From assembly GCA_001788495.1 (NCBI GenBank), contig MGCF01000006.1, positions 2,106-66,105 of the forward strand: 64,000 bases of DNA. The letters are read 5' to 3'. This document shows positions 1 through 38,322 of this stretch, one piece after another; the stretch's first letter is position 1; the number at the start of each line of letters is the position of its first letter. The notes beneath the pieces were generated by a model, which saw only the letters and a program-made list of their open reading frames with translations, made no database searches and was not told the origin of the DNA. This stretch comes from Candidatus Rokubacteria bacterium RIFCSPLOWO2_02_FULL_73_56 (GTDB lineage Bacteria; Methylomirabilota; Methylomirabilia; Rokubacteriales; CSP1-6). The position numbers were made by a program, and so were the translations under genes.

Positions 1-1514
1 CCCGCCGCGGCGAGGCGCGCGCTCAGATGCTCGGAGGCGGCGACCGAGCGGGTGCCGACGAGAATCGGTCGTCCCTGCCCGTGGAGCGCGGCGATGCGCT
101 CCACCACCGCCCCCCACCTCGCCTCCGCGTCCCGATACACTCGGTCGGCATGCCGCCGCCGGCGGAGAGGCCGGTTGGTCGGGATGGACACGACCGGCAG
201 CCGATAGACCGACCAGAGCTCGGCCGCGGTCTCACGCGCGGTCCCGGTCATGCCGCACAGCATGAGATAGCGCCGGAAGAAGCGCTGGTAGCTGATGCGC
301 GTGAGCGCGTCGTGGCGCGCGCTGAGGGGGCATTCCTCCTTGACCTCGATGAGCTGGTGCAGCCCATGCTCCCACGAGCGGTCCGACATGAGACGCCCGG
401 TGTACTCGTCGATGATCTGCACCTTCCGGTCGCGCACGATGTAGTGCAGATCGCGGTGGAACAGGTGCAGCGCCGTGAGGGCCTTGGTGACCAGCTCCTC
501 CCGCCGGCGGCGGCCGGTCCACACGCCGCCGAGCGGCGGCGCGTTCTCGTCGAGCCGAAGCATGCCCGACTCGGTCAGCCGTGCCGCACGATCCTGCTCG
601 TCGATCGCGAAGTCGAGGCCGGGCGTCAGTCGTGACGCCAGGGCGAGTGCCGTCGAATAGAGGCGGCGCTCGCTCGCGGCGCCGGCGGCGCCGCCGCCGG
701 AAATGATCAACGGCGTGCGCGCCTCGTCGATCAGCACGCTGTCGGCCTCGTCGACGATCGCGTAGCTGAGCCCGCGCAGCACCAGCCGGCCGGCGCGGGC
801 GTCGTCGCCCGCGAGGCGCTCGAGCTGGAGCAGGGTGCGGCTGGCACGCGGTCCCAGAGCCAGCCGGTCTCGCAGGTAGTCGAACGCCACTTCCTTGTTC
901 GTGACGTAGGTGACGTCGGACGCGTAGGCGGCGCGCCGGTCCGCATGCTCCATCCCGTGGACCACGACACCGACCGTGAGCCCGAGCCCCCGATAGACCG
1001 GGCCCATCCACTCGGCGTCCCGGCGCGCCAGGTAGTCGTTGACCGTGATGACGTGGACCGGAATGCCGGCGAGCGCCGCCGTGCACGCGGCGAGCGTCGC
1101 GGTCAGCGTCTTGCCCTCGCCGGTTTCCATCTCCGCGACCATGCCGCCGAGCAGCACGCGTCCACCGACCAGCTGGACGTCGAAGTGACGCTCTCCCAGG
1201 GTCCGTTCGGCGACCTCCCGCACGAGGGCGAAGGCGCGGGCGACGAGATCGTCGACGAACCGGCGCGCGCGGAGCTCTCGACCGAGCCGCTGGGCCGCCG
1301 CGAGGATCGCGTCCTCGCCGAGCGTCGCGATCCCGCCGCCGTGCCGGTCGACGAGCGCGGAGAACCGCATCCAGCGTGCCCTGCGCACCGCTCGGTGACG
1401 CAGCAGGGGCGCCACGGCCCGAGCGGCAAGACGATCGAGGGCCCCAGGCGGACGCTCGCTACGCTCCGGATAGGCGCCGAGCGGGACCTCGGGGTGGACC
1501 GCGAGCCTAGACAT
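1..1514 (-). CDS. SecA-family preprotein translocase ATPase paralogue (divergent, possibly accessory SecA2-like). 5' partial within the window; the gene continues past coordinate 1.
   Basis: Reverse-strand translation from the ATG at 1512-1514 gives 'MSRLAVHPEV...ERHFDVQLVGGRVLLGGMVAEMETGEGKTLTATLAACTAALAG...VTNKEVAFDYLRDRLA...YAIVDEADSVLIDEARTPLIISG...LCGMTGTA...VVSIPTNRP...GRPILVGTRS', i.e. SecA Walker A, DEAD-box and preprotein cross-linking motifs. There is no stop before the window edge, so the ORF tool did not list it. Its ATG overlaps the TAG of the upstream M50-HlyD gene (ATGTCTAG). Confidence 0.8.
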   Translation of the reverse strand, partial: MSRLAVHPEVPLGAYPERSERPPGALDRLAARAVAPLLRHRAVRRARWMRFSALVDRHGGGIATLGEDAILAAAQRLGRELRARRFVDDLVARAFALVREVAERTLGERHFDVQLVGGRVLLGGMVAEMETGEGKTLTATLAACTAALAGIPVHVITVNDYLARRDAEWMGPVYRGLGLTVGVVVHGMEHADRRAAYASDVTYVTNKEVAFDYLRDRLALGPRASRTLLQLERLAGDDARAGRLVLRGLSYAIVDEADSVLIDEARTPLIISGGGAAGAASERRLYSTALALASRLTPGLDFAIDEQDRAARLTESGMLRLDENAPPLGGVWTGRRRREELVTKALTALHLFHRDLHYIVRDRKVQIIDEYTGRLMSDRSWEHGLHQLIEVKEECPLSARHDALTRISYQRFFRRYLMLCGMTGTARETAAELWSVYRLPVVSIPTNRPLRRRRHADRVYRDAEARWGAVVERIAALHGQGRPILVGTRSVAASEHLSARLAAA

Positions 1515-3654
1515 TGAAGCGCGAGAGGAAGAGCTGCCGGACCGTCCGGTACCACTGCAGGGCGAGCGGTCTCGAGCCGTGGTCGAAGCGCACGTACGCG
1601 CGGCCGCCGACGTTGAGCCGGAGGGACCGAGCCGCAAGCTCGACGTCCACCTGAAAGACCTTCTGGGTCGCCGTGACCCCCTTCGGGTCCCGCGGATCGA
1701 CGACGATCTGTCCTCCGCCAGCGCTGCCGAGCGCCGTCGTCGGCAGCCGCTCGCTCGCGGCCGGCACGATCCGGCGGAGCGTGGCGGGAACCGTGTCGGC
1801 GAGGCTCTCGGCGAGGCGCACCTCCAGCCCCACGGTATGGAAGCGGACCAGATCGATCGCGCCCTGGGGCACGGCGGCCCGGATCGTGACCGTGGCGAGC
1901 TCGACCACGTAGGCCAGCTGCTCGCCCTTCTTGACGAAGCGACCCGGCAGGTCCTCCGGCGTCGGCACGATGAACGCGCCCGCCGTGCCGCTGCGAACCG
2001 TCAGGGCCTCGACGCGCTCCAGCGCCTGGCCCAGATCTTGCCGCGCGTACCGCAGATCCTTCTCGATGATCTCGGCCTTCACCCGATCCACCGGGCGCTG
2101 CTCGTCGTAGCGCGCCTGGAGCTCGCGGACGCGCGCCCTGAGCATCGCCACACGGACGCCCAGATCGGAATCCCTGAGCACGATCAGCGCGTCGCCTTGC
2201 CGCACCCGGGAGCCCGACGACGCGACGAACCGCTCGACGAACCCGTCGGTGCCGGCCCGGACGAGCGACTCCTCCGGAATCCAGACCACACCCTCGACGA
2301 CGCTGCGATACGGGACCGGCGCCAGCGTCACCACGCCGACGGCGGCCGCGACGGCCGCGCCCGCGACGGCGAGCGCCCGCGCGCGGTGCTTGCGGAGGCG
2401 CGGACTCGCGAAGAGAAACCGCGCCCCCTTGCCGATCGGAACGCCGATCCAGCCGACGGCCGTCAGGCCCGCGAAGAACATCGCCAGCCAGAAGTACCGG
2501 TCGGCGATGAAGGCGATGATGGCGATCACCACGAGCACCCGGTAGGCGAAGGAGGCCGCCGCGTAGGCCACGAACCACGCACGCTCGCCGGCCGTGGCCA
2601 CGGCCAGCTCGGCCTCACGCTGCCCGAACAGGTAGCGTTCGCAGAGATACCCGAGGTACTTGTTGGACCGCTGCCGCAGGTTCGGAATCTCCAGGAGGTC
2701 GCCCAGGATGTAGTAGCCGTCGTACCGCAGCAACGGGTTTGCGTTGAAGAAGATCGTGGTGACCCCCGCGATCAGGATCACGTTGTAGGTGATCACGCGG
2801 AGCAGCCCGGCCTCGACGCTCAGCCAGACGTAGAGGGCCAGGGCCGCGAGGAACAACTCCACGGTCATCCCCGCGGCGCCGACGGCGATGCGCCGCCACT
2901 TGCTGCGGAACGCCGAGGCCGACGAGGCGTCCACGTACGGCACGGGCGTCATCACGAGGACCATGACGCCCATGTCGTGGACCTCACCACCGAATGCCTT
3001 CGTCGTGTAGGCGTGACCGAGCTCGTGCAGCGCCTTGATCAGGGGGAAGAGCAGCCAGATCGTGAACAGGGCCTGCATGGAGAACAGGCGATCGAGGGTG
3101 TCCCGGGTCAGGTCCGTCCAGTACACGCCGGCGAGGACGAGTGCCGGGAGGACGACCAGGACCCAGGCGACCGCCCCCGCCGGGCCGACGAGGGGTCTGA
3201 CGAGCGGGACCGTCGCTGCGAGGAACCGCTCGGGGTCGAGCAGCCGCATGCGCCACGAGAAGAAGCTGGAGACCCGGCCGAGCCACCTCCTCCGCTGCTG
3301 GCGTTCGTACCGCTCCAGCAGGTCCGCCGCGTCGGGCGGGACATCGGACTGGAGCACGTCGCTCGCGTGGAGCTGGCTCAGGAGCTGGATGACGTCCTCC
3401 TGGGTCGGGCCGTCGTCGCCCAGGCGCTCGCAGGCCGTTTCCCAGAGCTCCTGAACCGTGCGCCGGCCATCCATGAGCCCGATCACCAGATACGCCTGCG
3501 GGGTGAAGCGGTGAAAGCGCTGGCCGGCGCGGTCCTCCAGCACGTACCACGTCTTGCCGCGGTACCGGTGGCGGTGGATGTGCGCGTGACTCCTGAGCCG
3601 CGGCTGGAGCTCGGCGACCCGGTACCAGGAGCTGCTGAAGAGCGGTTGCGTCAC
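1507..3654 (-). CDS. Tri-domain membrane protein: N-terminal PqqD-like peptide-binding (RRE) domain, peptidase M50 (site-2 protease, HExxH) and C-terminal HlyD-family periplasmic adaptor.
   Basis: N-terminal 'RFTPQAYLVIGLMDGRRTVQELWETACERLGDDGPTQEDVIQLLSQLHASDVL' matches the PqqD/RRE pattern. Multi-TM core with 'LIKALHELGHAYTTKAFGGEVHDMG' (HExxH) and 'NPLLRYDGYYILGDLLEIPNL' is typical of M50. The C-terminal coiled-coil plus beta-barrel ('RYARQDLGQALERVEALTVRSGTAGAFIVPTPEDLPGRFVKKGEQLAYV') is HlyD-like. Start taken as the GTG at 3652-3654 immediately after the upstream gene stop; an internal ATG start is possible. Confidence 0.7.
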   Translation of the reverse strand: MTQPLFSSSWYRVAELQPRLRSHAHIHRHRYRGKTWYVLEDRAGQRFHRFTPQAYLVIGLMDGRRTVQELWETACERLGDDGPTQEDVIQLLSQLHASDVLQSDVPPDAADLLERYERQQRRRWLGRVSSFFSWRMRLLDPERFLAATVPLVRPLVGPAGAVAWVLVVLPALVLAGVYWTDLTRDTLDRLFSMQALFTIWLLFPLIKALHELGHAYTTKAFGGEVHDMGVMVLVMTPVPYVDASSASAFRSKWRRIAVGAAGMTVELFLAALALYVWLSVEAGLLRVITYNVILIAGVTTIFFNANPLLRYDGYYILGDLLEIPNLRQRSNKYLGYLCERYLFGQREAELAVATAGERAWFVAYAAASFAYRVLVVIAIIAFIADRYFWLAMFFAGLTAVGWIGVPIGKGARFLFASPRLRKHRARALAVAGAAVAAAVGVVTLAPVPYRSVVEGVVWIPEESLVRAGTDGFVERFVASSGSRVRQGDALIVLRDSDLGVRVAMLRARVRELQARYDEQRPVDRVKAEIIEKDLRYARQDLGQALERVEALTVRSGTAGAFIVPTPEDLPGRFVKKGEQLAYVVELATVTIRAAVPQGAIDLVRFHTVGLEVRLAESLADTVPATLRRIVPAASERLPTTALGSAGGGQIVVDPRDPKGVTATQKVFQVDVELAARSLRLNVGGRAYVRFDHGSRPLALQWYRTVRQLFLSRFNV

Positions 3655-3659
3655 GGGCG

Positions 3660-5417
3660 CTACGGGAGCCAGGCCCAGAGCTTCAGCCGGAGCCAGTCGG
3701 CGGCCTGGCGTGTCCAGATCCAGACGAGCAGGTGCCGCCCGGACACGATCTTGCCGACCCCCTCCATGCCGGGCCGGAGACGCTGCGGCGCCCGATCGAG
3801 TCTCGCCTCCACGCGGAAAGAATTGCGCCCGTCGCGGGCCGTCGAGACGGGCGTGATCTTCGTCACCGTGAACGGCAGCGCGTCCGATGGCCAGGCAGTC
3901 AGGAGGAGCTGGCCTCGCTGGCCCACGGCGATGTCGGCGATGTCGCGCTCGTCGACCTCGAGCACCGTGCGGTAGCCGGCCAGCGGCGCGACCTCGAAGA
4001 GGGTCTGGCCCCGCTCGATCGGGGCGCCGAGCGACTGGCTCAGGTCTCCGGTCACGACGACGCCGTCGAACGGCGCCACGACGTGGGTGCGGGACAGATG
4101 ATCGTCGGTCAGGGCGAGCTGCGCCCGCGCCTGGTCGGCCTGGGCGCTCGCGATCTGGAGCGCGGCGGCGTCCCCCTTGGCACGGGCCTGGTCCCGCTGG
4201 CGGCTCAGCTGCTCGAGCTGGCCCTGCCACCTCGCCCGTTCGAGCCTGAGCTCGCGGTCGTCGAGCACCGCGAGCACCTGCCCCTCACGGACGGCGTCGC
4301 CGGCGCGGACCGGCGCGTCCTTCAGATAGCCGCTGAACGGGGCGACCGCGGCGATGCGCGTGCTCGGCTCCATCACGCTCCGGGCCGACACGCGGTAGTC
4401 CCCCTCGGCCAGCGCCAGGAACAGGCCCAGGGCCGTGAGCCCCGCCACGGTGAGCTTGAGTGCGGTATGCCGCGGACCGATGAGATGGCCGAGGTGGCGC
4501 AGTCCCACCTGGACCGCCTTCTCGATCAGCCAGCGATCGTCCCGGCGCTGCACCTCCAGCACGGGACCCGCGACGGCCGCGAGCGCCTCGCAGAACTCCA
4601 CCGTCGCCCGATCGAACGGCCGGTCGGCCCCCCGCTCCAGGGTCAGCGCGCCGACCACACGCGCCCCCTCCGCGAAGAGGACCGTGCAGATCGCCCCGGC
4701 GTTGGACTGCCGCGCCAGGTCGGCGTGGGCCCCGGTCACGCGCGCCTCGGCCCCCGGCGGTTCCGGGTAGACCACCGTCGCGCGCTGGTCCAGGGCCTCG
4801 TCCATCGCGGCGCCGATCGCGCGGATCAGATTCGTCTGCTTGGCGAAGTTCGCCGTGTGGGAGACGGCCCGCGGGTGCATCCGGCCGCGCTTGAGGAAGC
4901 CGACGCTCACCCGGTCGCAGCCCAGACGCGTGGCCAGAGTCGTGACGAAGGTCGTCGCCGCGCCGTAGAACCGCTCGTGGCCGAGGCTGCTCGTGACCAG
5001 CTCGAGGACCGTCTGCAGCCGCTGCTTCGACGCCTCGACGCTCCCCGGATCGAGCTGCGCGGCGCCGAGGCGGTGCACCAGCACCTCGAGCCAGCCGGCG
5101 CCCCACTGGAGCTGGCGCAGGACCCCTTCCAGCTCCGCCTGGGGCCGGGGTGCGATGTCGAGCGCGACGACGCCGTGCACCCGCCCGTTCGCCTGGATCG
5201 GATACGCGACGTCGTAGCGCTCACGGTCCCGCACCGACGCGTCCGTACCTGCCTCGCGCTTCAGGACGATACCGCGCCGCTCGGCGAGCGCACGCTCCGC
5301 GGCCTCGGCCAGATGCGCCGCGGCGCGAGAGCCTTCCGGCCAGAAGGCCGCCGGAGCGAACTTGCCCGTGGTCGGAGAGGCGGCGACGACGACGCCCCGG
5401 CCGACGCCCGGGATCAT
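3660..5417 (-). CDS. GAF-domain-containing HlyD-family membrane-fusion (periplasmic adaptor) protein. The true N-terminus probably extends upstream (see the in-frame TAA finding).
   Basis: N-terminal 200 aa have GAF-like composition, followed by one TM helix ('LKLTVAGLTALGLFLALA'), then HlyD-like biotinyl/lipoyl, coiled-coil and beta-barrel segments ('APFSGYLKDAPVRAGDAVREGQVLAVLDDRELRLERARWQGQLEQL...VVAPFDGVVVTGDLSQSLGAPIERGQTLFEVAP'). The 53 codons between 5417 and 5577 are open, protein-like and in the same frame. Confidence 0.7.
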   Translation of the reverse strand: MIPGVGRGVVVAASPTTGKFAPAAFWPEGSRAAAHLAEAAERALAERRGIVLKREAGTDASVRDRERYDVAYPIQANGRVHGVVALDIAPRPQAELEGVLRQLQWGAGWLEVLVHRLGAAQLDPGSVEASKQRLQTVLELVTSSLGHERFYGAATTFVTTLATRLGCDRVSVGFLKRGRMHPRAVSHTANFAKQTNLIRAIGAAMDEALDQRATVVYPEPPGAEARVTGAHADLARQSNAGAICTVLFAEGARVVGALTLERGADRPFDRATVEFCEALAAVAGPVLEVQRRDDRWLIEKAVQVGLRHLGHLIGPRHTALKLTVAGLTALGLFLALAEGDYRVSARSVMEPSTRIAAVAPFSGYLKDAPVRAGDAVREGQVLAVLDDRELRLERARWQGQLEQLSRQRDQARAKGDAAALQIASAQADQARAQLALTDDHLSRTHVVAPFDGVVVTGDLSQSLGAPIERGQTLFEVAPLAGYRTVLEVDERDIADIAVGQRGQLLLTAWPSDALPFTVTKITPVSTARDGRNSFRVEARLDRAPQRLRPGMEGVGKIVSGRHLLVWIWTRQAADWLRLKLWAWLP

Positions 5418-5576: not shown

Positions 5577-5915
5577 TTACGACGCCGCCGGCGCGTCGGC
5601 CTGCGCTCCCTCGACCTGGACGGCGCCAAACCGGGCTTCATGTTCCCGCAACACGTTGGCCAGGAGCGTCGACAGCCGCTTGGCGACGAACGGGTTGAGG
5701 ATGAGTCGGTCGGTGAGCTGCACCGTCACGTCCTTCTGCCCGGCGTGCCACGCCTGGTTGATGCCGAAGAGCAGGACGACCTCCTCGCGCGTGCTCGCGA
5801 CGTTGCAGACGTTCGAGTACGAGCTCTTCATCCGGGAATCGTCCCACTTGATGGTGAGCTGCTGGGCCGTGCGCTCGGGCCCGGCCACAGCTTCGCGTTC
5901 ACGCTCGTCCGCCAT
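5577..5915 (-). CDS. DUF3467-like small protein (copy 1), 112 aa.
   Basis: 'MADEREREAVAGPERTAQQLTIKWDDSRMKSSYSNVCNVASTREEVVLLFGINQAWHAGQKDVTVQLTDRLILNPFVAKRLSTLLANVLREHEARFGAV...' carries the YSN / EFV.L.FG / R.IL.P..AKRL / YE..FG signature I associate with DUF3467. It is in the same frame as the downstream GAF-HlyD gene, separated by one TAA. Confidence 0.65.
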   Translation of the reverse strand: MADEREREAVAGPERTAQQLTIKWDDSRMKSSYSNVCNVASTREEVVLLFGINQAWHAGQKDVTVQLTDRLILNPFVAKRLSTLLANVLREHEARFGAVQVEGAQADAPAAS

Positions 5916-5944: not shown

Positions 5945-6892
5945 TCAGCTCGATGGGGTCCGGGTCAGTATGCCCGGCGGCCGCGGAGCCTCGGCCGCTC
6001 GAATGGGCACGAGCTCCGCGGCGTGCCACCCGTACCTCGCCGCGTAGGCCGCGTTGAGCCCCAGGCACCGCGTCGAGCTGCACGCCTCGCGATGCACGCA
6101 CTGGTAGAAGCCGTTGCGCCGGAACTCGGTCCAGAAGGCGGGGTCGATGAACAGCCGCGGCTGCGAGTTGTCGAGCGTGTCCCCGTCCTCGCCCAGCAGG
6201 CAGTGCGGAAAATTCTTGACCATGACGCCACGGTCGAGCGCGTGGCATCTGGCGATCGCCGTCCTCAGGAAGGGGAGCACCTCGAGGTGGGATGCGCCCA
6301 GCTCCTTGACGTCCTGCTCGTTCATGGCGAAGTAGACCCAGAACTCGTGCTGGACCATCCGCCGCAGGTGTCCGAGCCGGTCGACGAGCCGGGGCAGATG
6401 CCGGTAGCTCTTCACCGTGACGACGGTGTTCGTGAGGGTCGCGACGCCCGGCAGCGCGTCCAGGTTCTCCAGGCCCCGGAGGGTCTTGTCGAACGATCCC
6501 GGCACTGTCGTGATCGCGTCGTGCGTCTCGGCGTCCGCGGCGGTGACGCTCACGAAGAACTCGTCGACTCCCGCGTCGACCAGCTCTCGGCAGTAGGCCT
6601 CGCTCGCCAGGCGCATCCCGTGCGTCTGGATCCGCACGTGCTCGAAGCCCCTCCGCCGCGCCTGTCTGGCCAGCTCCGGCAGGTCACGCCGCAGCGTGAT
6701 CTCCGCCCCGGTGAGGATCAGACCCGTCCACCGTCGGTGCGTCGCGTTGTAGTCCAGGAGCTGCTCGAACCGGCTGAGCGACTCCGGCTCCAGCCGGTCC
6801 ATGGTGTCCTCGATCATGCAGTGGACGCAGGCCAGATTGCAGCGGAACTCCAGCGTCATCGACACGTAGCGATCGTCGTCAAACCGTCCCAC
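5945..6892 (-). CDS. Radical SAM enzyme with a C-terminal auxiliary Cys cluster (SPASM/twitch-like), a putative peptide- or protein-modifying maturase.
   Basis: 'RCNLACVHCMIED' is the CX3CX2C 4Fe-4S/SAM motif at residues 18-25. The C-terminal 'HCLLGEDGD...YQCVHREACSSTRCLGLN' Cys cluster suggests a second Fe-S site. Length 315 aa. Confidence 0.75.
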   Translation of the reverse strand: MGRFDDDRYVSMTLEFRCNLACVHCMIEDTMDRLEPESLSRFEQLLDYNATHRRWTGLILTGAEITLRRDLPELARQARRRGFEHVRIQTHGMRLASEAYCRELVDAGVDEFFVSVTAADAETHDAITTVPGSFDKTLRGLENLDALPGVATLTNTVVTVKSYRHLPRLVDRLGHLRRMVQHEFWVYFAMNEQDVKELGASHLEVLPFLRTAIARCHALDRGVMVKNFPHCLLGEDGDTLDNSQPRLFIDPAFWTEFRRNGFYQCVHREACSSTRCLGLNAAYAARYGWHAAELVPIRAAEAPRPPGILTRTPSS

Positions 6893-7235
6893 GGGGCTTC
6901 CCTTCCCTCTCGGCTCGAGTCGCCGGGGACCCTGCGCCCTCGAACCGCGCCTCGTACTCCGCGACCACCCGGCCGAGCAGCACGGCGAGCCGCTTCGCGA
7001 CCGGCGGACTCAGCACGATCCGCTGGCCGAGATCGACGACGAGCTCCTGGCGGTCGGTCCGCGAGGCGCGGCTCACGCCGAACGACAGGACGAACTCCGC
7101 GTCGCTGGTCGATACGTTGCACTGGTTCGCGTGCATCCGCCTGGCGCTCGCGTCGTCCCAGCGGACCCGGGCGGCGCCCGAGCTCACGGCTTCGTCCCCG
7201 TGACCAGGAAGAACGGCGTCTCGAGGTCGATCCAC
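6879..7235 (-). CDS. DUF3467-like small protein (copy 2), 118 aa.
   Basis: 'VRWDDASARRMHANQCNVSTSDAEFVLSFGVSRASRTDRQELVVDLGQRIVLSPPVAKRLAVLLGRVVAEYEARFEG' is paralogous to copies 1, 3 and 4. It overlaps the rSAM start by 14 nt and the O-MT stop by about 50 nt. Confidence 0.6.
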   Translation of the reverse strand: MDRPRDAVLPGHGDEAVSSGAARVRWDDASARRMHANQCNVSTSDAEFVLSFGVSRASRTDRQELVVDLGQRIVLSPPVAKRLAVLLGRVVAEYEARFEGAGSPATRAEREGKPRGTV

Positions 7236-8275
7236 CGGACGTCGACGCCGCGGAACCCGAGTGCGCCGAGCTGATCAACGTACGCCGCCGGCGAGCGAAA
7301 CGAGCGGAAGAACAGCAGCAGCGGGATCATCGCGTATGACGGCGCGCCGGTCGCGACCGGTCCCCGCTCGAAGATGAGGAGCGTTCCCCCGGGCTTCAGC
7401 GCCTCGCTCGCCCGGACGAGCAGACGCCTCGCGTCCCGCTCCGGCCAGTCGTGCAGCATGGACTTGAACGATACCAGATCGCGCCCGCCGGGCAGCGGAT
7501 CGGTCAGCGCGTTCCCCCGGACGAAGTCGATCCGCGCGCCTTCGGGCTCGCGCTCCACGTGTGCGCGGCCGATGTCGCACACCACGGGCAGGTCGAACAC
7601 CGTCGCCGTGACCGCCGGGTACCTCCGACAGATCCGGAGCGCGAATTCCCCGCTGTTGCCGCCGACGTCCAGGACCCGCTCGTGGCCCCCGAAGTCGTGA
7701 TGCTGCAGGCACACCCCGGCCTCGTACTTCGTGAGACACGTGGTGATGCGCATCCACCGTCGGGTCGCCTCGTAGTCCTCGGCGCTCGCCCCGAGCGCCC
7801 GGTCGTAGGAGAACAAGCGAAAGGTGCGGGCCTGACGCCGGAACGTCTCGGGGTCCCGGATCGCCGCCGTGAACAGGTCCGTGAAGTCCGGCAGCACCAG
7901 CGCGGCGTACTCGAGCTTCGTCTCGAGCAGGTCACGGAAGCGGAGGGCCCTCCGGAAGTCCTCGCTCAGCGCGACGCCTCGCGGCCGTTCCTCGACGACG
8001 CGGTTCGTCCGGAGCAGGTCCAGCAGCAGCCGCAGGCCGCGGCCGTCGCCCGGGAACCCCGTCGCGAGATCCGCGACGGCCATGGCCTCGTGGGCAGCCA
8101 GCCGGTCGATCACCCGGAGCTCGAACGCCGTCTTCAACGCCCGTGCGTCGATCAGGGTCGTGAGAAAGCCGTCGACACAGAGGTACTCCCGCTCGTCTGT
8201 GGGCTCCATGGACGCCGCCGGCGGCGGGCCCACCGCGAGGCCCCGAGCGCGGTCGGTCACGTCAAAAGACTCCAT
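7184..8275 (-). CDS. Class I SAM-dependent O-methyltransferase (plant-type OMT fold, dimerisation domain plus MT domain).
   Basis: 'ERVLDVGGNSGEFA' is SAM-binding motif I, and the C-terminus is OMT-like. Start taken as the ATG at 8275 ('MESFDVTDR'), which overlaps the upstream gene by 14 nt; the ATG at 8209 ('MEPTDEREY') is an alternative. Confidence 0.7.
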   Translation of the reverse strand: MESFDVTDRARGLAVGPPPAASMEPTDEREYLCVDGFLTTLIDARALKTAFELRVIDRLAAHEAMAVADLATGFPGDGRGLRLLLDLLRTNRVVEERPRGVALSEDFRRALRFRDLLETKLEYAALVLPDFTDLFTAAIRDPETFRRQARTFRLFSYDRALGASAEDYEATRRWMRITTCLTKYEAGVCLQHHDFGGHERVLDVGGNSGEFALRICRRYPAVTATVFDLPVVCDIGRAHVEREPEGARIDFVRGNALTDPLPGGRDLVSFKSMLHDWPERDARRLLVRASEALKPGGTLLIFERGPVATGAPSYAMIPLLLFFRSFRSPAAYVDQLGALGFRGVDVRWIDLETPFFLVTGTKP

Positions 8276-9134
8276 AATAGGCGCTCTTGAGGAACACCAG
8301 CCTGCCACCCTCCATACGGTAGTCGATCCCGACATCGTACAGCATGTGGCTCAGACTCGGCCGGTTCCTTTCGACGAACGACACGATCGCTTCCGGATAC
8401 GCCAGCCGCCGCAGGAAGAAGAGGAACTGATCCACGTCAATCCCGACGAAGTAGACGGCATCGTTCCGCTTCTTGTTCGCCACCACGATCACCCGGCACT
8501 TCTGCAGCTCCGGCCACAGGATCTCCTCGATCGGCACCCGCGTGGCGTCCATGTACGCGGAACACCCGGCCTTGTCCTTGATCTCCGCGAGCTGCGAGCG
8601 CGCGTCGAAGAAGAAGTAGAAGTTCTCGAGGGCGGTCCCGCGCTTCGTCAGCGAGTAGCAGATGCCCCCGGAGACCGTGCTCCCGGGCGTCCCGACATAC
8701 ATGTGGATCTCGTCCAGGGAGGCCGTCCCCGTCAGCAGCGACGGGCCCACGTCGAGCGAGAACATGAAGTACGGCAGGCGCTCGTTGACCGGGACGTCGC
8801 AGCGCACCCGAGGCCGGAGCGCCTCGGCGACTCGCGTGATGGAGCGCGTGCGCTCTCGGCGCCGATAGTCGTAGAAGTAGAGCTCCCAGCGCAGCTCGCC
8901 CCCGATCCACTTGACTCCGAAGACCGTCTTCGACACGCCGATCGCCTGCCGGAGGAGCGGCACCAGGTCGAAGCATTCCTCTCCCACCCCCGCGACCTCG
9001 AACGACCGGAACAGCAGGTTCACCGATCGAAACTTGCCGCCCGGGGGCGCGACCGGCTCGTACTCCCACAGGCAGAAGTCCTGCAGCGTCTCCCCCTCCG
9101 CCGCGTACTCGAGGCGCTCGTCGAGCGTCTTCAT
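8262..9134 (-). CDS. Hypothetical protein, 290 aa, aromatic/Lys-rich and markedly lower GC than its surroundings; distant paralogue of the C-terminal domain of the upstream gene.
   Basis: 'MKTLDERLEYAAEGETLQDFCLWEYEPV...NFYFFFDARSQLAEIKDK...FVGIDVDQFLFFLRRLAYPEAIVSFVERNRPSLSHMLYDVGIDYRMEGGRLVFLKSAYYGVF' has real-protein composition. Its ATG overlaps the upstream gene's TGA (ATGA at 9131-9134). Local GC is roughly 58% against about 72% elsewhere. Confidence 0.65.
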   Translation of the reverse strand: MKTLDERLEYAAEGETLQDFCLWEYEPVAPPGGKFRSVNLLFRSFEVAGVGEECFDLVPLLRQAIGVSKTVFGVKWIGGELRWELYFYDYRRRERTRSITRVAEALRPRVRCDVPVNERLPYFMFSLDVGPSLLTGTASLDEIHMYVGTPGSTVSGGICYSLTKRGTALENFYFFFDARSQLAEIKDKAGCSAYMDATRVPIEEILWPELQKCRVIVVANKKRNDAVYFVGIDVDQFLFFLRRLAYPEAIVSFVERNRPSLSHMLYDVGIDYRMEGGRLVFLKSAYYGVF

Positions 9135-10252
9135 TGCGCGCCGAAGTAGATGGAGAGGAAGTCCTTGCCTTCCCGGTCGAAACCGCCCGTCACGTGCCCG
9201 AAGGGCGCCGCGCTCACCTGCGCGTACGCCGCCTCGAACCGGTCCGCGGAGATCGCGTAGTGCTCGCAGATCCTGAGGAACAGGGCGTGGAGATCGCGCA
9301 GCCGCAGTCGCGCGTTGTAGAGGTTGATGTCGAACGAGTTCCGCGGGTTCCCCTCCTCGGTGGTCTCCAGGTACAGGAATCGATCGGCGGCCACCCGGCC
9401 CGCGGCCTGCAGGACGATCTCGCGCGCGAGCGCGAGCGGGGTACCGGAGGGGCCGCCCGCGAAGGCGCGGGCCATCCGCTCCAGCATGTCGTCGGTGGAG
9501 AGCCCGGGATGGCACGTGTACCGCGCGACGGAGCACCGCCGGCTGTCGTCGGCATCCCACTTGAATCCCAGGTACATGAGGAGGGGATCCCGCCGGTTCT
9601 CCGCCTTGGCCCTGACCAGTCTCCCCCCGAATTCCAGATAGGCCTTGTAGCGCTGCGTCCGCTCGCTCTCCTCGAAGCCGAAGAAGACGATGTTGGCCTG
9701 GAAGATGTTCTCGCGGAACGCCGCCACGAAGCGCTCCGGCATCCGGAGGCGCTCGCAGATCGCCAGGAGGCGCCCGCCGGCGTCCTCGCTGAGCGAATCC
9801 CGCTTGAAGCCCCACAGGAACCGGTTCGCGAGCAGGGTCCGCTCGAACATCTTGAAGGAGCGCTCGAGCACCGGCTGGACTCCGAGGTCCTCGACGAGGC
9901 GAAGCAGCTCGGCGGCCTGCTCGGGGATGCCTTCGGTGAGCGACACGGGCGACTTCCGGCTGGAGAGCGGCGCCGCCGGCGGCAGCGGCTCGCCCCCGAG
10001 CGAGCCGTGCTCCCACTCGTAGTCCCGGACGGCGTGCGCCAGCATGGCCGCGAGCCGCTTCGCGGTGGAAGGGCTCAGGACGATCCGGTCGGACACCTCG
10101 AGCACGAGCTCGTCGGTGCCGGGCACCCGGCGCCCCTTGCTCCCGAAGGACAGGGTGACCTCCGAGCGATCGGCGGACAGCTCGAACACGTTCGCGTAGC
10201 TCGTGCTCGCATTCGAGCCTTCCCAGCGCACCGGGACCCGAGCCTCAGACAT
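9131..10252 (-). CDS. DUF3467-like N-terminal domain (copy 3) fused to an unknown about 260-aa domain.
   Basis: 'MSEARVPVRWEGSNASTSYANVFELSADRSEVTLSFGSKGRRVPGTDELVLEVSDRIVLSPSTAKRLAAMLAHAVRDYEWEHGS' is DUF3467-like. The C-terminal '...FDINLYNARLRLRDLHALFLRICEHYAISADRFEAAYAQVSAAPFGHVTGGFDREGKDFLSIYFGAQ' resembles the C-terminus of the 290-aa neighbour. GGAGGG RBS 7 nt upstream; 93 nt downstream of the giant gene stop. Confidence 0.65.
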   Translation of the reverse strand: MSEARVPVRWEGSNASTSYANVFELSADRSEVTLSFGSKGRRVPGTDELVLEVSDRIVLSPSTAKRLAAMLAHAVRDYEWEHGSLGGEPLPPAAPLSSRKSPVSLTEGIPEQAAELLRLVEDLGVQPVLERSFKMFERTLLANRFLWGFKRDSLSEDAGGRLLAICERLRMPERFVAAFRENIFQANIVFFGFEESERTQRYKAYLEFGGRLVRAKAENRRDPLLMYLGFKWDADDSRRCSVARYTCHPGLSTDDMLERMARAFAGGPSGTPLALAREIVLQAAGRVAADRFLYLETTEEGNPRNSFDINLYNARLRLRDLHALFLRICEHYAISADRFEAAYAQVSAAPFGHVTGGFDREGKDFLSIYFGAQ

Positions 10253-10345
10253 CGGGGCCCTCCGCGCCCGACGGGTCGGCGGGGCCGACGCCGCCGCGTC
10301 CGCTCCTACCCGCCTCCACCGCCGGGATCAGTCTCCCTCGACACG

Positions 10346-13300
10346 TCACGCTCCGCTGATCGCGGTCGCGGGGCTCGCCTCGACCAGCTCGATGTCCGGG
10401 GCCACGTCGATGCTCCAGTCCAGGAGGTGCGACTCCGCCGACTCCGGCCGACTCAGCTCACCGCGCCGCGCGGCCGTCGTCAGGCTGCTCCAGAGATCCC
10501 CCGCCGCGTCGCCGTCGAAGATCCGGAAGTCGCGCAGGGCCGCCAGGACCCCGCCGCCGCGCTGCTCGTCGCGCGTGCTCAGGCCCGCGAACGCCCCCGC
10601 CGACCAGTCGATCCCCGGCGCGGCCGGTGCGAGGCGCACCGGCCCACCGAGCGCGACCTCGACAGGCTGCGCGGAACCCGTGTCGTGCGCGACGAGCCGC
10701 TCGCCCTGCGTCAGCGTCGGCGACATCACGTCGGCCACGCCCTCGTGCGCGAATCCCATCACGTGTCCGAGCTCGTGCATGGCCACCGTCAGCAGGTCCA
10801 CGCCGCCACTGCCGCCGCCGACGATCCAGCCGTACCCTGCAGCGTCGGCGTCGAAGACGATCGAGCGGCCCACGGTGGTGGCGAGCACCGGCCCGTCGAG
10901 CTCCGCGACCGCGAACCGGAAGTCCGCCAGCGCCCCCAGCCGCGAATCCCCGTTGCCCAGCGTGTCGGTCCACTGGCGGATCGCCGTGTCGACCGCGCCG
11001 TCCAGCGTGCGGACGTCGAGCGTGCCGGTCGCCGCCGGTGCGGACGCGATGGCCGCCGCTTCCATGTTCTGGCCGCCCGACTGCGCGAAGGCGGGATCCG
11101 TCGTCTTGATCGTGACGTTGTCGAAGCTCGCCGCTCCGCCGGTCGCGAACACGCCGAATCCGCCGTCCACGACGACCGCGTTGAACGCGAAGCCGACGAC
11201 CGCCTGACCGTTCAGCGTCACGCTGACCGTCGACCCCTTCAGCGAGATGCCCAGCGTGTAGTCGGTGCCCGCGTTGATCGTCCGGGCCACCGACGCGTCG
11301 ATGACCCAGCCGTTCTTCGCCGTGTAGTGCCCGATCACGACCTTGTCCGCGGGCGCGTCGATCGCGACGAACTTGAAGTCGTCCCCCTCGTACCGGTCGA
11401 AGACGAAGCCCGCGCGGCCCTGCGTGTTGACGATCGAGGACAGCTCGAGCACCGACGATACCTGGAACCCGCCGACGCCGAGGTCGATCAGCTTCGCCGC
11501 GGTCCCGCCCGAGGGCGGCACGGCCACGTAACGGCCGCCGCTCACGGCCCACGTTCCGCTCGTCGCGCCCGTGAACAGGTCGGCGACGCCGTCGCCGAAG
11601 TCCTCGGTCGACTGGAACGTCGCGGCCGCCTGCACCACCTGCACCTGGACGTTGTCGAACGAGCCGCGCGAGTTGTCCGAGCCCACCCCGACGAGGCCCC
11701 AGTTCAGGCCGTACGACCAGCCGTCGATCACCCGCGGCGCGAACGTGTAGGTCAGCGAGTCCTTGTTGTTGACGATGATCGTGGCGTTGAGGCCGTTGAT
11801 CGACAGCATCATGTTGTAGTACGTGTCGGCCTTCGCCAGGAACGGCGTCTGCTTGTCCACGTGCCAGCCCGAGGCGTCCCGGTGGCCGGCCACCAGCTTG
11901 TTCGTGGAGATGTCGATGCCGGTGAACTTGAAGTCGGTCTTCGTGTTGTAGTCGAAGATCAGGTAGGCGTTCCCCTTCCAGCCTGCCGTCGGCTTCACCA
12001 CGTCGACCGACGCGAGCATCTCGAAGTAGGCGGGCAGCGCGTCGCCGACCTGGTACACGGCGACCGCGTCGCCGCCCAGCGACTGCGCCGACACCTGGAG
12101 CGCGCCGCCCGAGACCGTCCACGCCCCGGAGTCGGCGAAGAACGCCTGGGCCGTACCGTCGTTGAAGTTCGCCGACCGCAGCACGTCGCGCTTGCCGCCG
12201 GGAACGTTCCCCGGCTGCGGGTCCGTGGGCGCGCCGGTCTGGTCGTGCCACGCGAAGTCCTGCTGCCTGATGACGGCGAGCTCGCCCTCCGGCTCGCCGT
12301 TCCGCGTCGGGTCCGCGCCCGTGTCGGCGGCGCGCGTCGGGTCGGCGCCGTCGTTGGCCGACAGCTGGTAGAGGAATTCCGCGAGCTGCGGCTGCAGCGT
12401 GCGGCTCACCGTCGCCATGCCGAACGGCGCAAACGGCACGAGGTAGCTGTTGAACTCGCCGGCCCAGTCGATGAGCCGGTCGCCGCCCGTGTTGCCGATC
12501 AGGACGTCGCGGCCGGCTCCGCCGAAGGCGCGGTCCTCGTAGCTGGCGGCCGTGTCGGGCGCGTTGTTGAGCCCGCCCGCCGTGGTCAGCACGTCGTCGG
12601 CGTTGAGCAGGTCGTTGCCCCAGCCGCCGTAGAGGTCGTCGCGACCCGTGCCGCCGACGAGCCAGTCGTTGCCCGTGTCGCCGAAGAGCGCGTCGTTGCC
12701 GTCGGAGAAGATCCCCGTCGCGACCTCCGCGCCCTCGGTGCTCACGAAGTTGAGGAAGAACTCCTTGCCCGCGCCCGTCTTCGACAGCTCGCCCACGTCC
12801 GTCAGCAGGATCTTCCGCAGCGGATCGTACTCGTCGTACAGCGCGAACTCGCCCGCGCGCCGCGTCCGGTCGACGTGCCAGCCGTCCGGGTCGTCCGGGT
12901 TGAAGCGGAGGATGTCGCCGTCCGCGAGGTTGAGCGGATGCCCGTAGTCGGTGCGGATGACGCCGATGAGCAGGTCGGTGGCGTCGTACAGCTGCGCGTA
13001 GGACTCGACCGGTGCCTCGGCGCCGGAGATCGCGTCGTCCCCCGAGCCGCCGTGGAGCGTGTCGTTGCCGACACCGCCGTAGATGATGTCGTCCGACTTG
13101 TGCGCGACCGTCGCGGAGCCGCCGAACTCGTCCTGGGTGCCGTTGAAGGTCACGTCCACGCTGAACGGCGTGAGGTCGGCCGTCTTCTTCAGCTGGCCGC
13201 TCACGTTGATGGTCGCCGACTGCACGTTGCCCGGCGTCGTGATGAGCAGGTCGAGCTGGCCGGCGAGGCTGCCGATCCCGTACAGCGGCTCCGCCGTGCC

Positions 13301-16300
13301 GTTCCGGCTCGTGAAGAGCCGGCCGTCGTCGCCGAGGACGCCGTCGTCGCCGGCGCCGCCCGAGATCCAGTCGTTGCCGTAGCCGGCCACGAGGTCGTCG
13401 TCCTGCCCCTCGCCGAAGAGCACGTCGTTGCCCTTCATGCCGTAGACGACGTCGTCGCCGCCCTCGCCGTGCAGCTCGTCCGCCGCGCCGATGTCGGTCG
13501 CCGCCTGCGCCGCCGTCGGCGCGTAGTCGAGACCGCCCGGGGTGTAGTCGACGAGCTGGACGCCGCGCACGACGATCTTCGCCTGCGGCACCGCCGGCGG
13601 GTCGTTCGTGTAGGTGTCGTAGTTGAAGGCCAGGAAGCCGCCGAACATCTCCACGCCGCCGCCGCCGCCCGGCGCGTCGTTGACGCCGAGCAGCCGATAG
13701 ATGTTGCCGTTGTCGCCGAGGATCACGTCGGCGTCGGTCGCGTGGCCCTGCGGCGTCAGGTTGCCCGCGTCGTTGCGTGCGACCGCGGTCCCGGAGCCGC
13801 CGAAGACGAGGTCCGAGCCGTCCGGCCGTTGGTTCGGCGTCTCCAGGCTGAACAGCGTCGAGCTGCCGCCGATGATGTCGTCCTGGCCCTGGTTGCCCAG
13901 GATGACGTCGTTCCCGCCGTTGCCCTCGACGTAGTCGTCGCCGTCGGTGGCCGCGTCGAAGGACGGGTTCAGGACGAGGGCGTTGCCCGCGTCCCGGGAG
14001 GCGCCGACGCGCGAACCGTTGCTCACGAAGTCGATCGAGCCGTCGCCCTGGATCACGTCGTCGCCGAGCTCGCCGAAGACCGTGTCGTCGCCGCCGCCGC
14101 CGGCGATGTAGTCGTTGCCGTAGAGGACGGCCGGCGTGCCGTTGGCGTGGTCCAGGAGCGTGATCTGGAAGTCGGCCCAGGCCGCGCTCCCACGCGGGTC
14201 CGCGTACTGGCTGGCCGAATTGATCAGGAGCTGGCCGGCCGTGGCCGCGGCGGTGCTGTAGACCTGCGTGCCGCTCAGCACCCGGAACCGCGGATTGGTG
14301 AAGTCGCCGAGCGTCAGCGACCGGTCGAGCGACACGTTGTCACCGAAGATCAGGTCCTTGTCCAGGCCGCCGTCGATGGCGTCGCTCCCGGTATTGCCGA
14401 TGAGGATGTCGTCGCCGGCGTTTCCGTACATCGTGTCGTCGGCGCCGTCGCTGTTGCTCTTGCTCTCCACCTGGATCACCCCGGCCGTCGACAGCAGCGT
14501 CTCCGCGATCGTCTGCGTGACGAGGCCGAAGTCGCCGAACTCGATGTCGGCGCCGCCGTCGCCGAAGAGCGTGTCCTGGCCGGGCGTCAGCGTGTCGTGC
14601 GTGTCCGGCGGGAACCCGGGAATGGGCGCCGACACGGCGAACACCGTGACCAGCTCGCGGTCGTAGAGCGTGCGGTCGATGACACCGCTGTCCTGGTTCG
14701 GCTCGGGGATGCTGACGGTCGTCTTGTGGACGTTGAACCCGTCGTCGCCGTAGATGATGTCGTCGCCGTCCTGGCCGTGGATCGTGTCGTGGCCCGAGCC
14801 GCCGGCCAGGTGGTCGCCCGCCTGGCTGCCCCAGATCGTGTCGTCGCCGCGCCCGCCGAAGATCGTGACGCTCTGGGTGGCGTTGCGCGCGTCGATCACG
14901 TCGTCGCCGGGGTTGTTGAAGGCGATCGCGTGCACCGACGCCACGCCCGACGTGCCGACGTACCGGCTACCGTCCTGCGAGGTGTCGCCGAAGACGACCA
15001 GCGGCGAACCCGCACCGCCGCCGCCGTTGATGGTGATGGTGTCGCTGCCGCCGCCGCCGTGCACGAGGGTGAGCGGGCCGCGGGTGCCGTCGGGCGCGGC
15101 CATCGTGCCGTCGATCGTCAGGCTGTCGTCGCCGCGGCCGAGCATGACCTCGAGCGTCTCGACCATCGTGTAGTTGATGCCCTTGGCGAAGTCGTGCGGC
15201 GTCCCGTCCTCGCCGACGAAGTGCAGGTCGGGGCCCATCCCGTTCATGAACAGGTTGCTGCCCGTCAGCGTGCCGACGTCGTTCGCGCCGCTGCCGTCGT
15301 TGAAGATGTTCAGCGTGTCGACCGAGCCCGTGTCGTCCGTGGTGATGACCTCGCCGACCGGGCCCGGATCGGTCTCGGTCGGCAAGATCACCGCCCGCCT
15401 GATCGAGCGGTCTTCTGGCCCGACGCTGCCGTCGATGGTGAGCGCTCCCTGGATCGCCGTGCTCGCCACGTGCGGCTGCACCGGGAAGAATTTCAGCGGC
15501 TGGATCTCGTCCGTCGGCGGGGCCTGCGGATTCGCCGTGACCCTGACGACGAACGGCGTGAACCAGTTGGTCGCGTCGAAGGTCACCGTGGCCGGGGTGA
15601 CGACCAGGCCGTCCGCGTCGAGGACGGCCGGGGTGAAGACCGGGCCGCCCGGCGGCACGACCACCGCCGAGTCGACCAGCGTCTGGTCGTCCGTCAGGAG
15701 GGCGATCGTCACCGCCGCCGCCGGCGCGTGCGTCAGCCGCAGGCTGTACGTGTCGCCGGTCGGGTCGCCCTTCACCACCAGCGTCGATCCGTCGGTCTCC
15801 CGCACGTAGACGCCGGCTCCATCCGTGTCGATGAGCTTGACGTTCAGCTTCGGAGCCGGCTTCGTCGCGAAGAAGCTTGTGTAGCTCGCGTCGGTGCCGC
15901 CCACCGCATGGCTGATCTGCGCCGTCACGGGATTCTGGACGACGAAGTCCTGGGCGGCCGCCACGTCCACGGTCGCAGCCACGTCCCAGTTGGACTCGTC
16001 GAACGTGAACGTCTGTGTCCCGGCGTTGTATCGCGGGTCGAGGCTCGAGAGCGCCAACCGCGCGTCGCTCGGACTCAGCGTCACCGTCACGGTCTGGCCC
16101 GCCGCCGGCGCCTTCGCGAGCTCCAGCGTGTAGCTGTCGGTGAGGCCGTGCGTGCCGGCCGCAGCGTCCTCCTCGAGCACCACCGTGTCCAGGTCGGTAT
16201 GCGTGAGGCGCAGCCCGGGCTGGTCGTCGTCGAGGACCCGCACCTTCACGTTGCGGATGGCCACGTGGTTGAAGTCGTCGTCCAGGCTACGGCTGCTCAT

Positions 16301-34285: not shown

Positions 34286-34628
34286 TTGAGGCTCCCTTGG
34301 AGAGCGAGCAGAGGCAGGGCGATGAGACGAGAAACCCGCGGATGCGAGTGCCAGCGCCTCCCGGAAATCACCTGGGCGGTTCTCCTACGGGCTAGCGAGC
34401 GACGCCACGGGTTGTGGCGGCGCCACTCTCGGACCAAACCTGTGCGTTGTCAAGGGCCGTTCTGCTGGCACCCGGGGCATTTCCGGAAGGCCCGCCGGCC
34501 CAGGTCAGGAGGCGTGCCTCCGGGTCACCGCCACGCCCCTCCCCCGATGACGCGAATTCCGGGCGGTGCGATCATGGCCCTGGCTCCCCGGTCATGGCAA
34601 GACGACAGGCCGTCCAGGCGCCGGCCCG
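34286..34628. promoter_or_regulatory. Divergent intergenic/promoter region between the giant-protein operon (minus) and the glycosyltransferase gene (plus).
   Basis: About 340 nt non-coding, the only sizeable gap upstream of a roughly 34-kb co-directional gene string. No motif could be assigned with confidence; a TGGCAC-containing stretch at about 34464 does not have correct sigma54 spacing. Confidence 0.35.
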
Positions 34629-37847: not shown

Positions 37848-37895
37848 AGGGCTTGAAATCGGCGGGCGGGCTGACGCACCCTCTGGGGGGACGCC

Positions 37896-38297: not shown

Positions 38298-38322
38298 CGC
38301 GGCGCGGGCTCCGCCGCGCCGC

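Follow-up and report, generated by a model that had tools for sequence, protein, structure and literature searches.

Why should a SecA-type ATPase be encoded in one operon with HlyD-type adaptors and a protein of 7,979 amino acids? The question is raised by a 64,000-nucleotide stretch of the genome of Candidatus Rokubacteria bacterium RIFCSPLOWO2_02_FULL_73_56 (contig MGCF01000006.1, positions 2,106 to 66,105), called the window below, in which the gene of a short SecA-like protein runs past the left edge. From domain content, conserved gene order and a recurrent tag at the N-terminus of neighbouring giant proteins, we consider it fairly probable that this protein serves as the ATPase of a dedicated, TolC-linked and type-1-like exporter for LEPR-tagged giant proteins.

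The window has a G+C content of 72%, and third-position G+C (GC3) marks one long minus-strand operon at 1-34285, whose junctions are mostly overlaps of 4-14 nucleotides (nt) or short gaps. In order of transcription, it encodes the 7,979-residue protein, a 373-residue DUF3467 fusion, a 290-residue protein, an O-methyltransferase, a DUF3467 protein (102 residues), a radical SAM enzyme, another DUF3467 protein (112 residues), GAF-HlyD (585 residues), PqqD-M50-HlyD (715 residues, M50-HlyD for short), the SecA-like protein and a HlyD-type adaptor of 274 residues. The features on which the argument turns are as follows.

1..1514, minus strand: short SecA-like ATPase, 5′ part (504 of 665 codons), with an N-terminal extension carrying (A/G)YPER, NBD1, PPXD and the start of NBD2 (translation, Pfam)
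1507..1514, minus strand: 8-nt overlap ATGTCTAG of the SecA-like start with the M50-HlyD stop (sequence; ATGNNTRR in related loci)
1507..3654, minus strand: PqqD(RRE-like)-M50-HlyD fusion, 715 residues (Pfam, NCBIfam, gene call, alignment, hydropathy)
3660..5417, minus strand: GAF-HlyD, 585 residues, conserved directly upstream of M50-HlyD (Pfam, NCBIfam, hydropathy)
5577..5915, minus strand: DUF3467 protein, 112 residues, small, cytoplasmic and highly conserved, directly upstream of GAF-HlyD
10346..34285, minus strand: giant protein of 7,979 residues, candidate cargo (open reading frame, GC3, Pfam, NCBIfam NF012209, translations)
34043..34105, minus strand: LEPR-XLL motif region of the giant protein, residues 61-81 (...FALETLEPRLLLSANL...), proposed export or processing signal (NF012209; same motif in module neighbours elsewhere)

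A SecA motor without the last third of SecA

The SecA-like gene extends on the minus strand from 1514 past the left window edge, with 504 stop-free codons inside the window (translation of 1514..3). A protein database match, P0001, is 100% identical over the common part and led to six near-identical metagenomic contigs that carry the whole locus, with occasional substitutions relative to the window. On one of these (locus L001) the complete gene spans 9857-11854 and encodes 665 amino acids. The gene caller starts P0001 at M49. Residues 1-48 are kept in homologues, with Y16, E18 and D28 invariant and the motif (A/G)YPER, so we take the ATG at 1514 as the true start. The C-terminus is a conserved ...LAFSGRxE. 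The 64-kb window contains no canonical secA gene.

In Pfam searches, the part inside the window matched SecA_DEAD (2e-100), SecA_PP_bind (7e-26) and the first 54 positions of P-loop_SecA; these three are the only Pfam domains of the protein, and SecA_SW is absent. The motor motifs listed in the first-pass annotation, which was made from the sequence of the window, are all present (METGEGKTLTATLAACTAALAG, VDEADSVLIDEARTPLIIS and MTGTA), and METGEGKT, VDEADSVLIDEARTPLIIS, TNMAGRGTDI and GRxGRQGDPG align with SecA structures from the PDB. The protein aligns to residues 46-647 of the 871 residues of Thermotoga maritima SecA and then ends 12 residues later. Its content amounts to NBD1, PPXD, NBD2 and the beginning of the scaffold helix; the rest of the scaffold, the wing domain, the two-helix finger (IRA1) and a Zn-finger tail are missing from the full 665-residue protein, including the C-terminal Zn finger that the first-pass annotation had proposed to look for upon recovery of the complete gene.

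We based the classification on curated hidden Markov model cut-offs, PDB scores and a published tree. Against the canonical SecA models TIGR00963 and NF009538, the full protein scored 630.8 and 618.3 bits, below the respective cut-offs of 814 and 800. It also fell below the cut-offs of all four SecA2 models, with 485 of 930 bits for TIGR03714, 491 of 725 for TIGR04221, 560 of 1085 for TIGR04397 and 407 of 1100 for NF012136, and in a PDB comparison its scores against solved SecA2 structures were no higher than those against canonical SecA. The protein is thus neither a housekeeping SecA, a role ruled out by the missing domains, nor a SecA2. The initial description of a divergent, non-housekeeping and probably extra SecA-type ATPase is supported, and its designation as SecA2-type has to be dropped.

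An AlphaFold model was built on a full-length homologue (P0002, 84% identical) and reached a predicted local distance difference test score (pLDDT) of 81.5. It superposes on SecA, best on SecY-bound forms (Foldseek TM-scores 0.75-0.76), and also matches the engineered Escherichia coli SecA-N68 (PDB 5k9t; Foldseek E = 6e-49, TM-score 0.67, target-normalised). The last element of the model is a single helix (residues 622-661). Between its YLRD segment and the DEAD box, NBD1 carries an insertion of ~19 residues (…LGPRASRTLLQLERLAGDDARAG…), at residues ~216-246 of the SecA-like protein (window ~775-870); it is kept across the short-SecA family and missing from T. maritima SecA. A search of the whole library yielded 150 clusters at 50% identity, at least 145 of which share the length of 650-690 residues and the same end. 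Three family representatives (P0295, P0387 and P0390) are much longer, with 993-1240 residues; in these the short SecA may be fused to a further part of the module.

Membrane partners and a deeply conserved gene order

Both membrane proteins encoded directly upstream combine a cytoplasmic domain with a periplasmic HlyD domain. M50-HlyD has a cytoplasmic N-terminal domain, roughly 6-7 hydrophobic segments by hydropathy and a periplasmic HlyD domain, together with the motifs HELGH and NxxPxxxxDG. Its first ~380 residues resemble RRE-fused leader proteases of ribosomally synthesized and post-translationally modified peptides (RiPPs), with matches to NF041824 daptide_HExxH (8e-48) and PqqD (5e-5). 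The NF041824 match covers model positions 1-360 of 379 and reaches 163.4 bits, below the cut-off of 300, so M50-HlyD is related to this family without being a member. GAF-HlyD consists of a cytoplasmic GAF domain, one transmembrane segment (residues 319-337, hydropathy) and a periplasmic HlyD or membrane fusion protein (MFP) domain. The third partner, the short 274-residue adaptor, has a signal peptide; its gene lies just outside the window and directly follows the SecA-like gene on L001. Matches to HlyD_3, HlyD_D23 and RND_mfp are spread over these three proteins. Beyond them, at the operon boundary just past the left window edge, the short HlyD gene on L001 is directly followed by an opposite-strand gene (13271-14068) that faintly matches LAGLIDADG_3 in Pfam. 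The SecY2-like neighbour sought beyond the window edge, as the first-pass annotation had suggested, was not found there, nor was an Asp gene; the next gene is that of the short HlyD adaptor.

Scanning genomes with an alignment of M50-HlyD, we obtained 61 loci. They span Methylomirabilota/Rokubacteria, Nitrospirota, Gemmatimonadota, Desulfobacterota, Alpha-, Beta- and Gammaproteobacteria and Campylobacterota, at least six phyla in all, and include the complete genome of Ca. Nitrospira defluvii with the same gene order. Six-frame searches recovered the order GAF-HlyD, M50-HlyD, SecA-like and short HlyD in most of the 61 loci, and in almost all of those long enough to show it, and the SecA-like proteins of related loci measure 659-669 residues. 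A TolC/OEP gene is part of the operon in 21 related loci and on a Methylosinus plasmid. In 26 of 58 loci, and again on the Methylosinus plasmid, GAF-HlyD is immediately preceded by a DUF3467 gene; DUF3467 is absent from about half of the loci. Culturable hosts with the module include Methylosinus sp. C49, Neptuniibacter, Ensifer, Mesorhizobium and Methylobacterium extorquens.

The junction between the M50-HlyD and SecA-like genes is conserved down to the nucleotide pattern. On the plus strand, positions 1507-1514 are ctagacat, corresponding to ATGTCTAG on the minus strand, as the first-pass annotation had noted: the ATG at 1514-1512 opens the SecA-like gene and the TAG at 1509-1507 closes the upstream PqqD-M50-HlyD gene. 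The same arrangement, ATGNNTRR, with 8 nt from the start of the ATG to the last letter of the M50-HlyD stop codon, recurs in 46 of 53 related loci from several phyla, and its conservation argues that the overlap is not due to chance. The overlap suggests translational coupling of the SecA-like gene to the M50-HlyD gene; no Shine-Dalgarno-like sequence is apparent upstream of the SecA-like start, which fits a termination-reinitiation mode. The tight linkage to HlyD-type adaptors proposed at first pass is thus borne out by both gene order and overlap.

Public databases label members of the family 'preprotein translocase subunit SecA' and some of the short SecA-like proteins 'prepilin peptidase', and RefSeq labels M50-HlyD homologues 'PqqD family peptide modification chaperone'. 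The names 'prepilin peptidase' and 'PqqD family peptide modification chaperone' look like a systematic misnaming of the family (examples in NZ_AP022333.1 17222-19138, P0002 and P0019).

Giant proteins with a LEPR-XLL tag recur beside the module

The giant protein consists of an N-terminal LEPR-XLL domain, a long unannotated body and, near the C-terminus, RTX calcium-binding repeats and a metzincin-like HELGHxxGxxH domain. Its N-terminus reads ...RQRQAFALETLEPRLLLSANL and has no hydrophobic core of a Sec-type signal. The protein passes the NCBIfam model NF012209 'LEPR-XLL' (model LEPR-8K) with 29.2 bits against a cut-off of 17. A protein search with its first 140 residues returned nothing at E <= 0.001 because the tag is too short, and we examined the association between tag and module by motif, starting from either side.

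Starting from the module, we found 17 LEPR-type motifs in 14 other module loci, all on the module strand and at most ~110 residues from the start of an open reading frame (ORF), as compared to 0-4 such motifs upon residue shuffling. All ten motifs tested from module loci scored above the NF012209 cut-off. In many other module loci the large ORF continues past the sequence edge, leaving its N-terminus beyond the reach of the motif search. On plasmid pMSC49a of Methylosinus sp. C49, a protein of 8,847 residues (N-terminus ...IIFDTLEPRVLLNADV) is encoded directly upstream of the module, followed by DUF3467, GAF-HlyD, a 'PqqD family protein', the SecA-like protein (annotated as 'prepilin peptidase'), the adaptor and TolC. 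A plasmid of Alisedimentitalea scapharcae encodes a protein of ~8,150 residues before HlyD, M50 and SecA, with a LEPR motif in frame just upstream of the annotated start. The RefSeq start of this 'calcium-binding protein' (NZ_CP123586.1 around 183224) appears to be placed too far downstream, the in-frame codons before it reading ...VVEQLEPRLLLAADFTIS. A SapC-family gene lies divergently upstream of the same giant gene, and in Chlorobium chlorochromatii sapC and tolC genes have been described beside giant protein genes (2026 preprint, 10.64898/2026.03.19.712371).

Starting from the tag, a DNA-pattern scan of metagenomes for LExLEPRLLLSA returned 120 loci, with the motif near an ORF start in 117. 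Most of these 117 ORFs are large and truncated. Among the 95 with at least 1 kb of upstream sequence, 22 have a core module gene in the same stretch, distributed over upstream sequence length as follows.

Less than 1 kb upstream: core module gene in 0 of 22 LEPR ORFs
1-3 kb upstream: 11 of 40
3-6 kb upstream: 4 of 38
More than 6 kb upstream: 7 of 17

The aligned tags give an extended consensus of RR[KR]-φ-x-φ-E-x-LEPRLLLSAD (φ = hydrophobic), located ~37 residues from the first Met. In the literature, the only use of LEPR-XLL that we found is as an annotation label. With the association seen from both sides, the LEPR-XLL tag probably marks the 7,979-residue protein as a cargo of the SecA-like system, which agrees with the early proposal of a special cargo and makes the adjacent giant gene its best candidate.

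Proposed route of export

From these data we infer how recognition, cleavage, direction of transport and the outer channel might be organized. In the exporter that we propose, the short SecA, with only its motor and preprotein-binding domain, would take the place of an ABC transporter. The soluble motor would be produced together with PqqD-M50-HlyD by means of the 8-nt overlap and would dock on this protein. The cytoplasmic PqqD/RRE-like domain may recognize the basic N-terminal LEPR-XLL tag, in this operon that of the adjacent RTX protein, and the M50 intramembrane metalloprotease may cut the tag off. The motor would then thread the unfolded cargo, N-terminus first, into an inner-membrane platform of M50-HlyD and GAF-HlyD, whose periplasmic HlyD domains, together with the secreted short HlyD, would form a bridge to a TolC-type channel. 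The GAF domain may gate the machine.

Several observations weigh against this scheme. The operon encodes no known protein-conducting channel, and M50 proteases are not known to act as such channels. The motor lacks the two-helix finger and wing domain that SecA uses at SecY. RTX repeats classically go together with a C-terminal signal and an ABC exporter, and an ABC exporter for the RTX cargo could be encoded elsewhere. The PqqD and M50 Pfam matches are at or under the gathering thresholds. Neither the window nor the surroundings of other Methylomirabilota modules contain a TolC gene, and the majority of the sampled LEPR genes have no module gene in the sequenced stretch. Three loci (L059, L067 and L068, from Marinobacterium arenosum and two Gemmatimonadota metagenome-assembled genomes) have GAF-HlyD, M50-HlyD and short HlyD and no adjacent SecA-like gene; here the ATPase may be encoded elsewhere, or the module may work without it. 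Finally, Kamneva, Poudel and Ward (PLoS One 2015; PMC4452313) found hardly any expression of three of the four M. extorquens module genes during exponential growth.

Other genes of the operon and the window

Between the giant gene and the conserved module, the operon contains five further genes.

5945..6892, minus strand: radical SAM enzyme, 315 residues, lineage-specific insert (Pfam, NCBIfam)
6879..7187, minus strand: second DUF3467 paralogue, 102 residues (gene call)
7184..8275, minus strand: O-methyltransferase, 363 residues, lineage-specific (Pfam, gene call)
8262..9134, minus strand: 290-residue protein without family match, recurring with the DUF3467-fusion gene beside LEPR genes
9131..10252, minus strand: 373-residue protein with an N-terminal DUF3467 domain and a C-terminal region of no family (Pfam, gene call)

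The operon thus holds three DUF3467 paralogues on the minus strand (5577-5915, 6879-7187 and 9131-10252). The 112-residue protein is 60-80% identical over its whole length to hundreds of metagenomic proteins. Neither this protein nor its profile has a sequence match in the PDB, and its AlphaFold model is poor (pLDDT 52). We considered DUF3467 as a SecB-like chaperone and abandoned the idea, as hhalign against E. coli SecB gave a probability of 0.1%.

The 290-residue protein and the C-terminal part of the 373-residue protein have no family or PDB match and no similarity to each other. In unrelated metagenomic contigs, both genes occur near LEPR-XLL genes in L096, L137 and L177, and one of the two in L117, L136 and L143, which suggests that they represent a second accessory cassette for LEPR cargos. 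The radical SAM enzyme and O-methyltransferase are found, among genome loci, only in those of Methylomirabilota type (L010, L022 and L023), and also on the unclassified metagenomic contig L096; they might modify the cargo or an accessory protein.

No ABC transporter gene is present in the operon; the ABC genes found at 38-42 kb are part of an uptake system for branched-chain amino acids. Two genes outside the operon had been taken for possible partners at first pass, and both look incidental. The secretin-like ORF at 37161-38486 (minus strand) is a lone gene with a weak Secretin match (41 bits) that adjoins an alcohol dehydrogenase gene and the ABC cluster for branched-chain amino-acid uptake; further type II or IV secretion genes are absent from its surroundings, and it was rejected as a system part for want of a counterpart in any related locus. 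The GT-B glycosyltransferase at 34566-35645 was rejected likewise, having a counterpart in L010, the closest relative, and in no other locus. The genes called in loci L001-L009 include none for SecY2, Asp proteins or glycosyltransferases.

Alternative explanations

Four other readings were weighed against the proposed exporter. The best NCBIfam match of the M50 part to a daptide leader protease, the accompanying PqqD match, the RefSeq name of homologues ('PqqD family peptide modification chaperone') and the presence of a radical SAM enzyme, an O-methyltransferase and three DUF3467 genes in the operon would all suit a RiPP-like peptide system. Here PqqD-M50 would trim the leaders of small modified peptides, perhaps of DUF3467 type, for export by the HlyD proteins, the SecA-like ATPase would be an unfoldase or chaperone, and the giant gene would be a bystander. 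We regard this as unlikely, given that radical SAM and methyltransferase genes occur in Methylomirabilota-type loci only, that DUF3467 is missing from about half of the loci and, unlike precursor peptides with variable cores, is 60-80% identical over its whole length across many samples, and that the recurrent neighbour is a large LEPR-XLL protein. Still less likely, in our estimate, is an accessory Sec pathway, in which a SecA2-type ATPase passes the cargo to SecYEG or SecY2 before the HlyD proteins come into play. In its favour are the retention of motor and preprotein-binding domain in this second SecA-type ATPase, the resemblance of the P0002 model to SecY-bound SecA and the published placement of the clade next to actinobacterial SecA2 (Kamneva et al., PMC4452313). 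The protein nevertheless misses all four curated SecA2 cut-offs, has neither a wing domain nor a two-helix finger, and is without half of the scaffold (the second) and any C-terminal tail; conserved genes for SecY2, Asp or glycosylation are not found in the vicinity, the glycosyltransferase recurring only in the closest relative; the SecA-like gene overlaps M50-HlyD in 46 of 53 loci; and the N-terminus of the giant cargo is devoid of a hydrophobic Sec-type signal.

M50 enzymes classically carry out regulated intramembrane proteolysis, and GAF is a sensory domain. The module could on these grounds serve envelope signalling or quality control instead of secretion, with site-2-protease-type regulated proteolysis, sensing by GAF and extraction of substrates by the SecA-like ATPase, in line with the regulatory role suggested for the GAF protein by Kamneva et al. 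(PMC4452313). We judge this decidedly improbable, because three periplasmic domains of the HlyD/MFP type and a TolC gene within the operon of 21 loci point to a trans-envelope conduit, and the consistent neighbours are huge extracellular proteins of RTX, cadherin or LamG type. That the SecA-like protein is simply the housekeeping SecA of the organism in an incidental position is next to negligible. The top-scoring curated models are canonical SecA (631 and 618 bits), but both scores lie under the cut-offs, the protein stops before the C-terminal third, the length of 650-690 residues and the end recur in at least 145 clusters at 50% identity, synteny is conserved, and in genomes of the Planctomycetes-Verrucomicrobia-Chlamydiae (PVC) group the secondary proteins are unrelated to the canonical SecA (PMC4452313).

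Comparison with known systems

The first-pass annotation regarded a coupling of SecA to HlyD adaptors as something that would be new; it was in fact published by Kamneva et al. in 2015 (PMC4452313). That study described secondary SecA_DEAD proteins of Gram-negative bacteria in which the scaffold/wing domain is missing, encoded together with GAF-HlyD, Peptidase_M50, HlyD/Biotin_lipoyl and sometimes OEP genes. In PVC bacteria, these proteins showed no relationship to the canonical SecA encoded alongside them in each genome, and the published tree placed the secondary clade as the sister group of actinobacterial SecA2. For the module, the authors proposed a machine of type-1-like character in which the SecA part is the ATPase, and for the GAF protein a regulatory role (PMC4452313). 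The SecA-like gene studied here belongs to this 'secondary SecA_DEAD' module, with which it shares SecA_DEAD without SecA_SW, the GAF-HlyD, M50 and HlyD neighbours and the occasional OEP/TolC neighbour. The taxa agree in part: one Nitrospirae species and several Proteobacteria were covered there, and Ca. N. defluvii is among our loci. The present copy differs in stemming from a Methylomirabilota/Rokubacteria-type genome, a phylum absent from that study. The paper does not mention LEPR-XLL giants, DUF3467, the PqqD/RRE-like domain or the conserved 8-nt overlap (PMC4452313), and the LEPR-XLL cargo link, the DUF3467 partner and the deep conservation of the overlap appear to be undescribed before. 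We found no functional or mechanistic study of the module in the literature after 2015, a gap due in part to the lack of a known cargo, and it goes unmentioned in a large 2021 review of tripartite systems.

With type 1 secretion (HlyB-HlyD-TolC), the module has in common the HlyD-family adaptors, a TolC-family channel (in related operons), adjacent large RTX substrates and an ATP-driven motor. It differs in having a soluble SecA-type motor as ATPase and no ABC transporter, three HlyD-domain proteins, one of them fused to M50, and a candidate signal that is N-terminal (LEPR-XLL) instead of C-terminal. Accessory Sec systems of Gram-positives and mycobacteria (SecA2-only and SecA2/SecY2) likewise use a second SecA paralogue with, probably, few cargos. 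SecA2 proteins, however, largely retain the wing domain, two-helix finger and tail that the SecA-like protein lacks, and the present module is found in diderm hosts with MFP and TolC partners and without SecY2, Asp or glycosyltransferase partners.

The closest match in domain content is E. coli SecA-N68 (PDB 5k9t), which is nearly equal in NBD1, PPXD and NBD2. SecA-N68 is a laboratory fragment, whereas the SecA-like protein is natural and widely conserved, with an N-terminal region of ~80 residues, in which (A/G)YPER lies, and the ~19-residue NBD1 insertion of its own. The ATPase of SecA-N68 is deregulated, since its IRA1 switch is missing. RRE-fused M50 leader proteases of RiPP systems (NF041824 daptide_HExxH; YydH/LiaK family) show the same succession of a PqqD-like domain and a HExxH intramembrane metalloprotease; M50-HlyD differs by its C-terminal HlyD fusion and by likely substrates that are huge proteins, not peptides. 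SecA_DEAD and PPXD are also embedded in giant proteins of Omnitrophota and Actinobacteria, with a proposed role in export (West-Roberts et al., bioRxiv 10.1101/2023.11.21.568195). There, too, a SecA motor without scaffold or wing is tied to giant proteins, but it is fused into the giant, as opposed to the separate 665-residue protein with HlyD adaptors found here.

Taken further, the module may represent a distinct, so far unnamed secretion pathway of diderm bacteria, in which the LEPR-XLL tag would direct giant proteins (often of ~8,000 residues and adhesin- or RTX-like) to a machine of truncated SecA, RRE-fused site-2-type protease, three HlyD proteins and TolC. In this view, DUF3467 would be a cytoplasmic factor dedicated to the machine, and the N-terminal position of the tag could allow export to start before translation of the giant protein is complete; we put this wider proposal forward as tentative, a serious possibility that falls a little short of an even chance. 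Our results already correct the database labels of family members ('preprotein translocase subunit SecA', 'prepilin peptidase' and 'PqqD family peptide modification chaperone'), and the LEPR-XLL link provides a concrete, testable cargo signal for the module. In the usual arrangement, SecA works at the SecYEG channel and type 1 secretion relies on ABC transporters. If the proposed reading is true, a widespread machine would join a SecA-type motor to HlyD and TolC parts as a hybrid of Sec and type 1 secretion, and would provide a possible explanation of how bacterial proteins of ~8,000 residues are exported.

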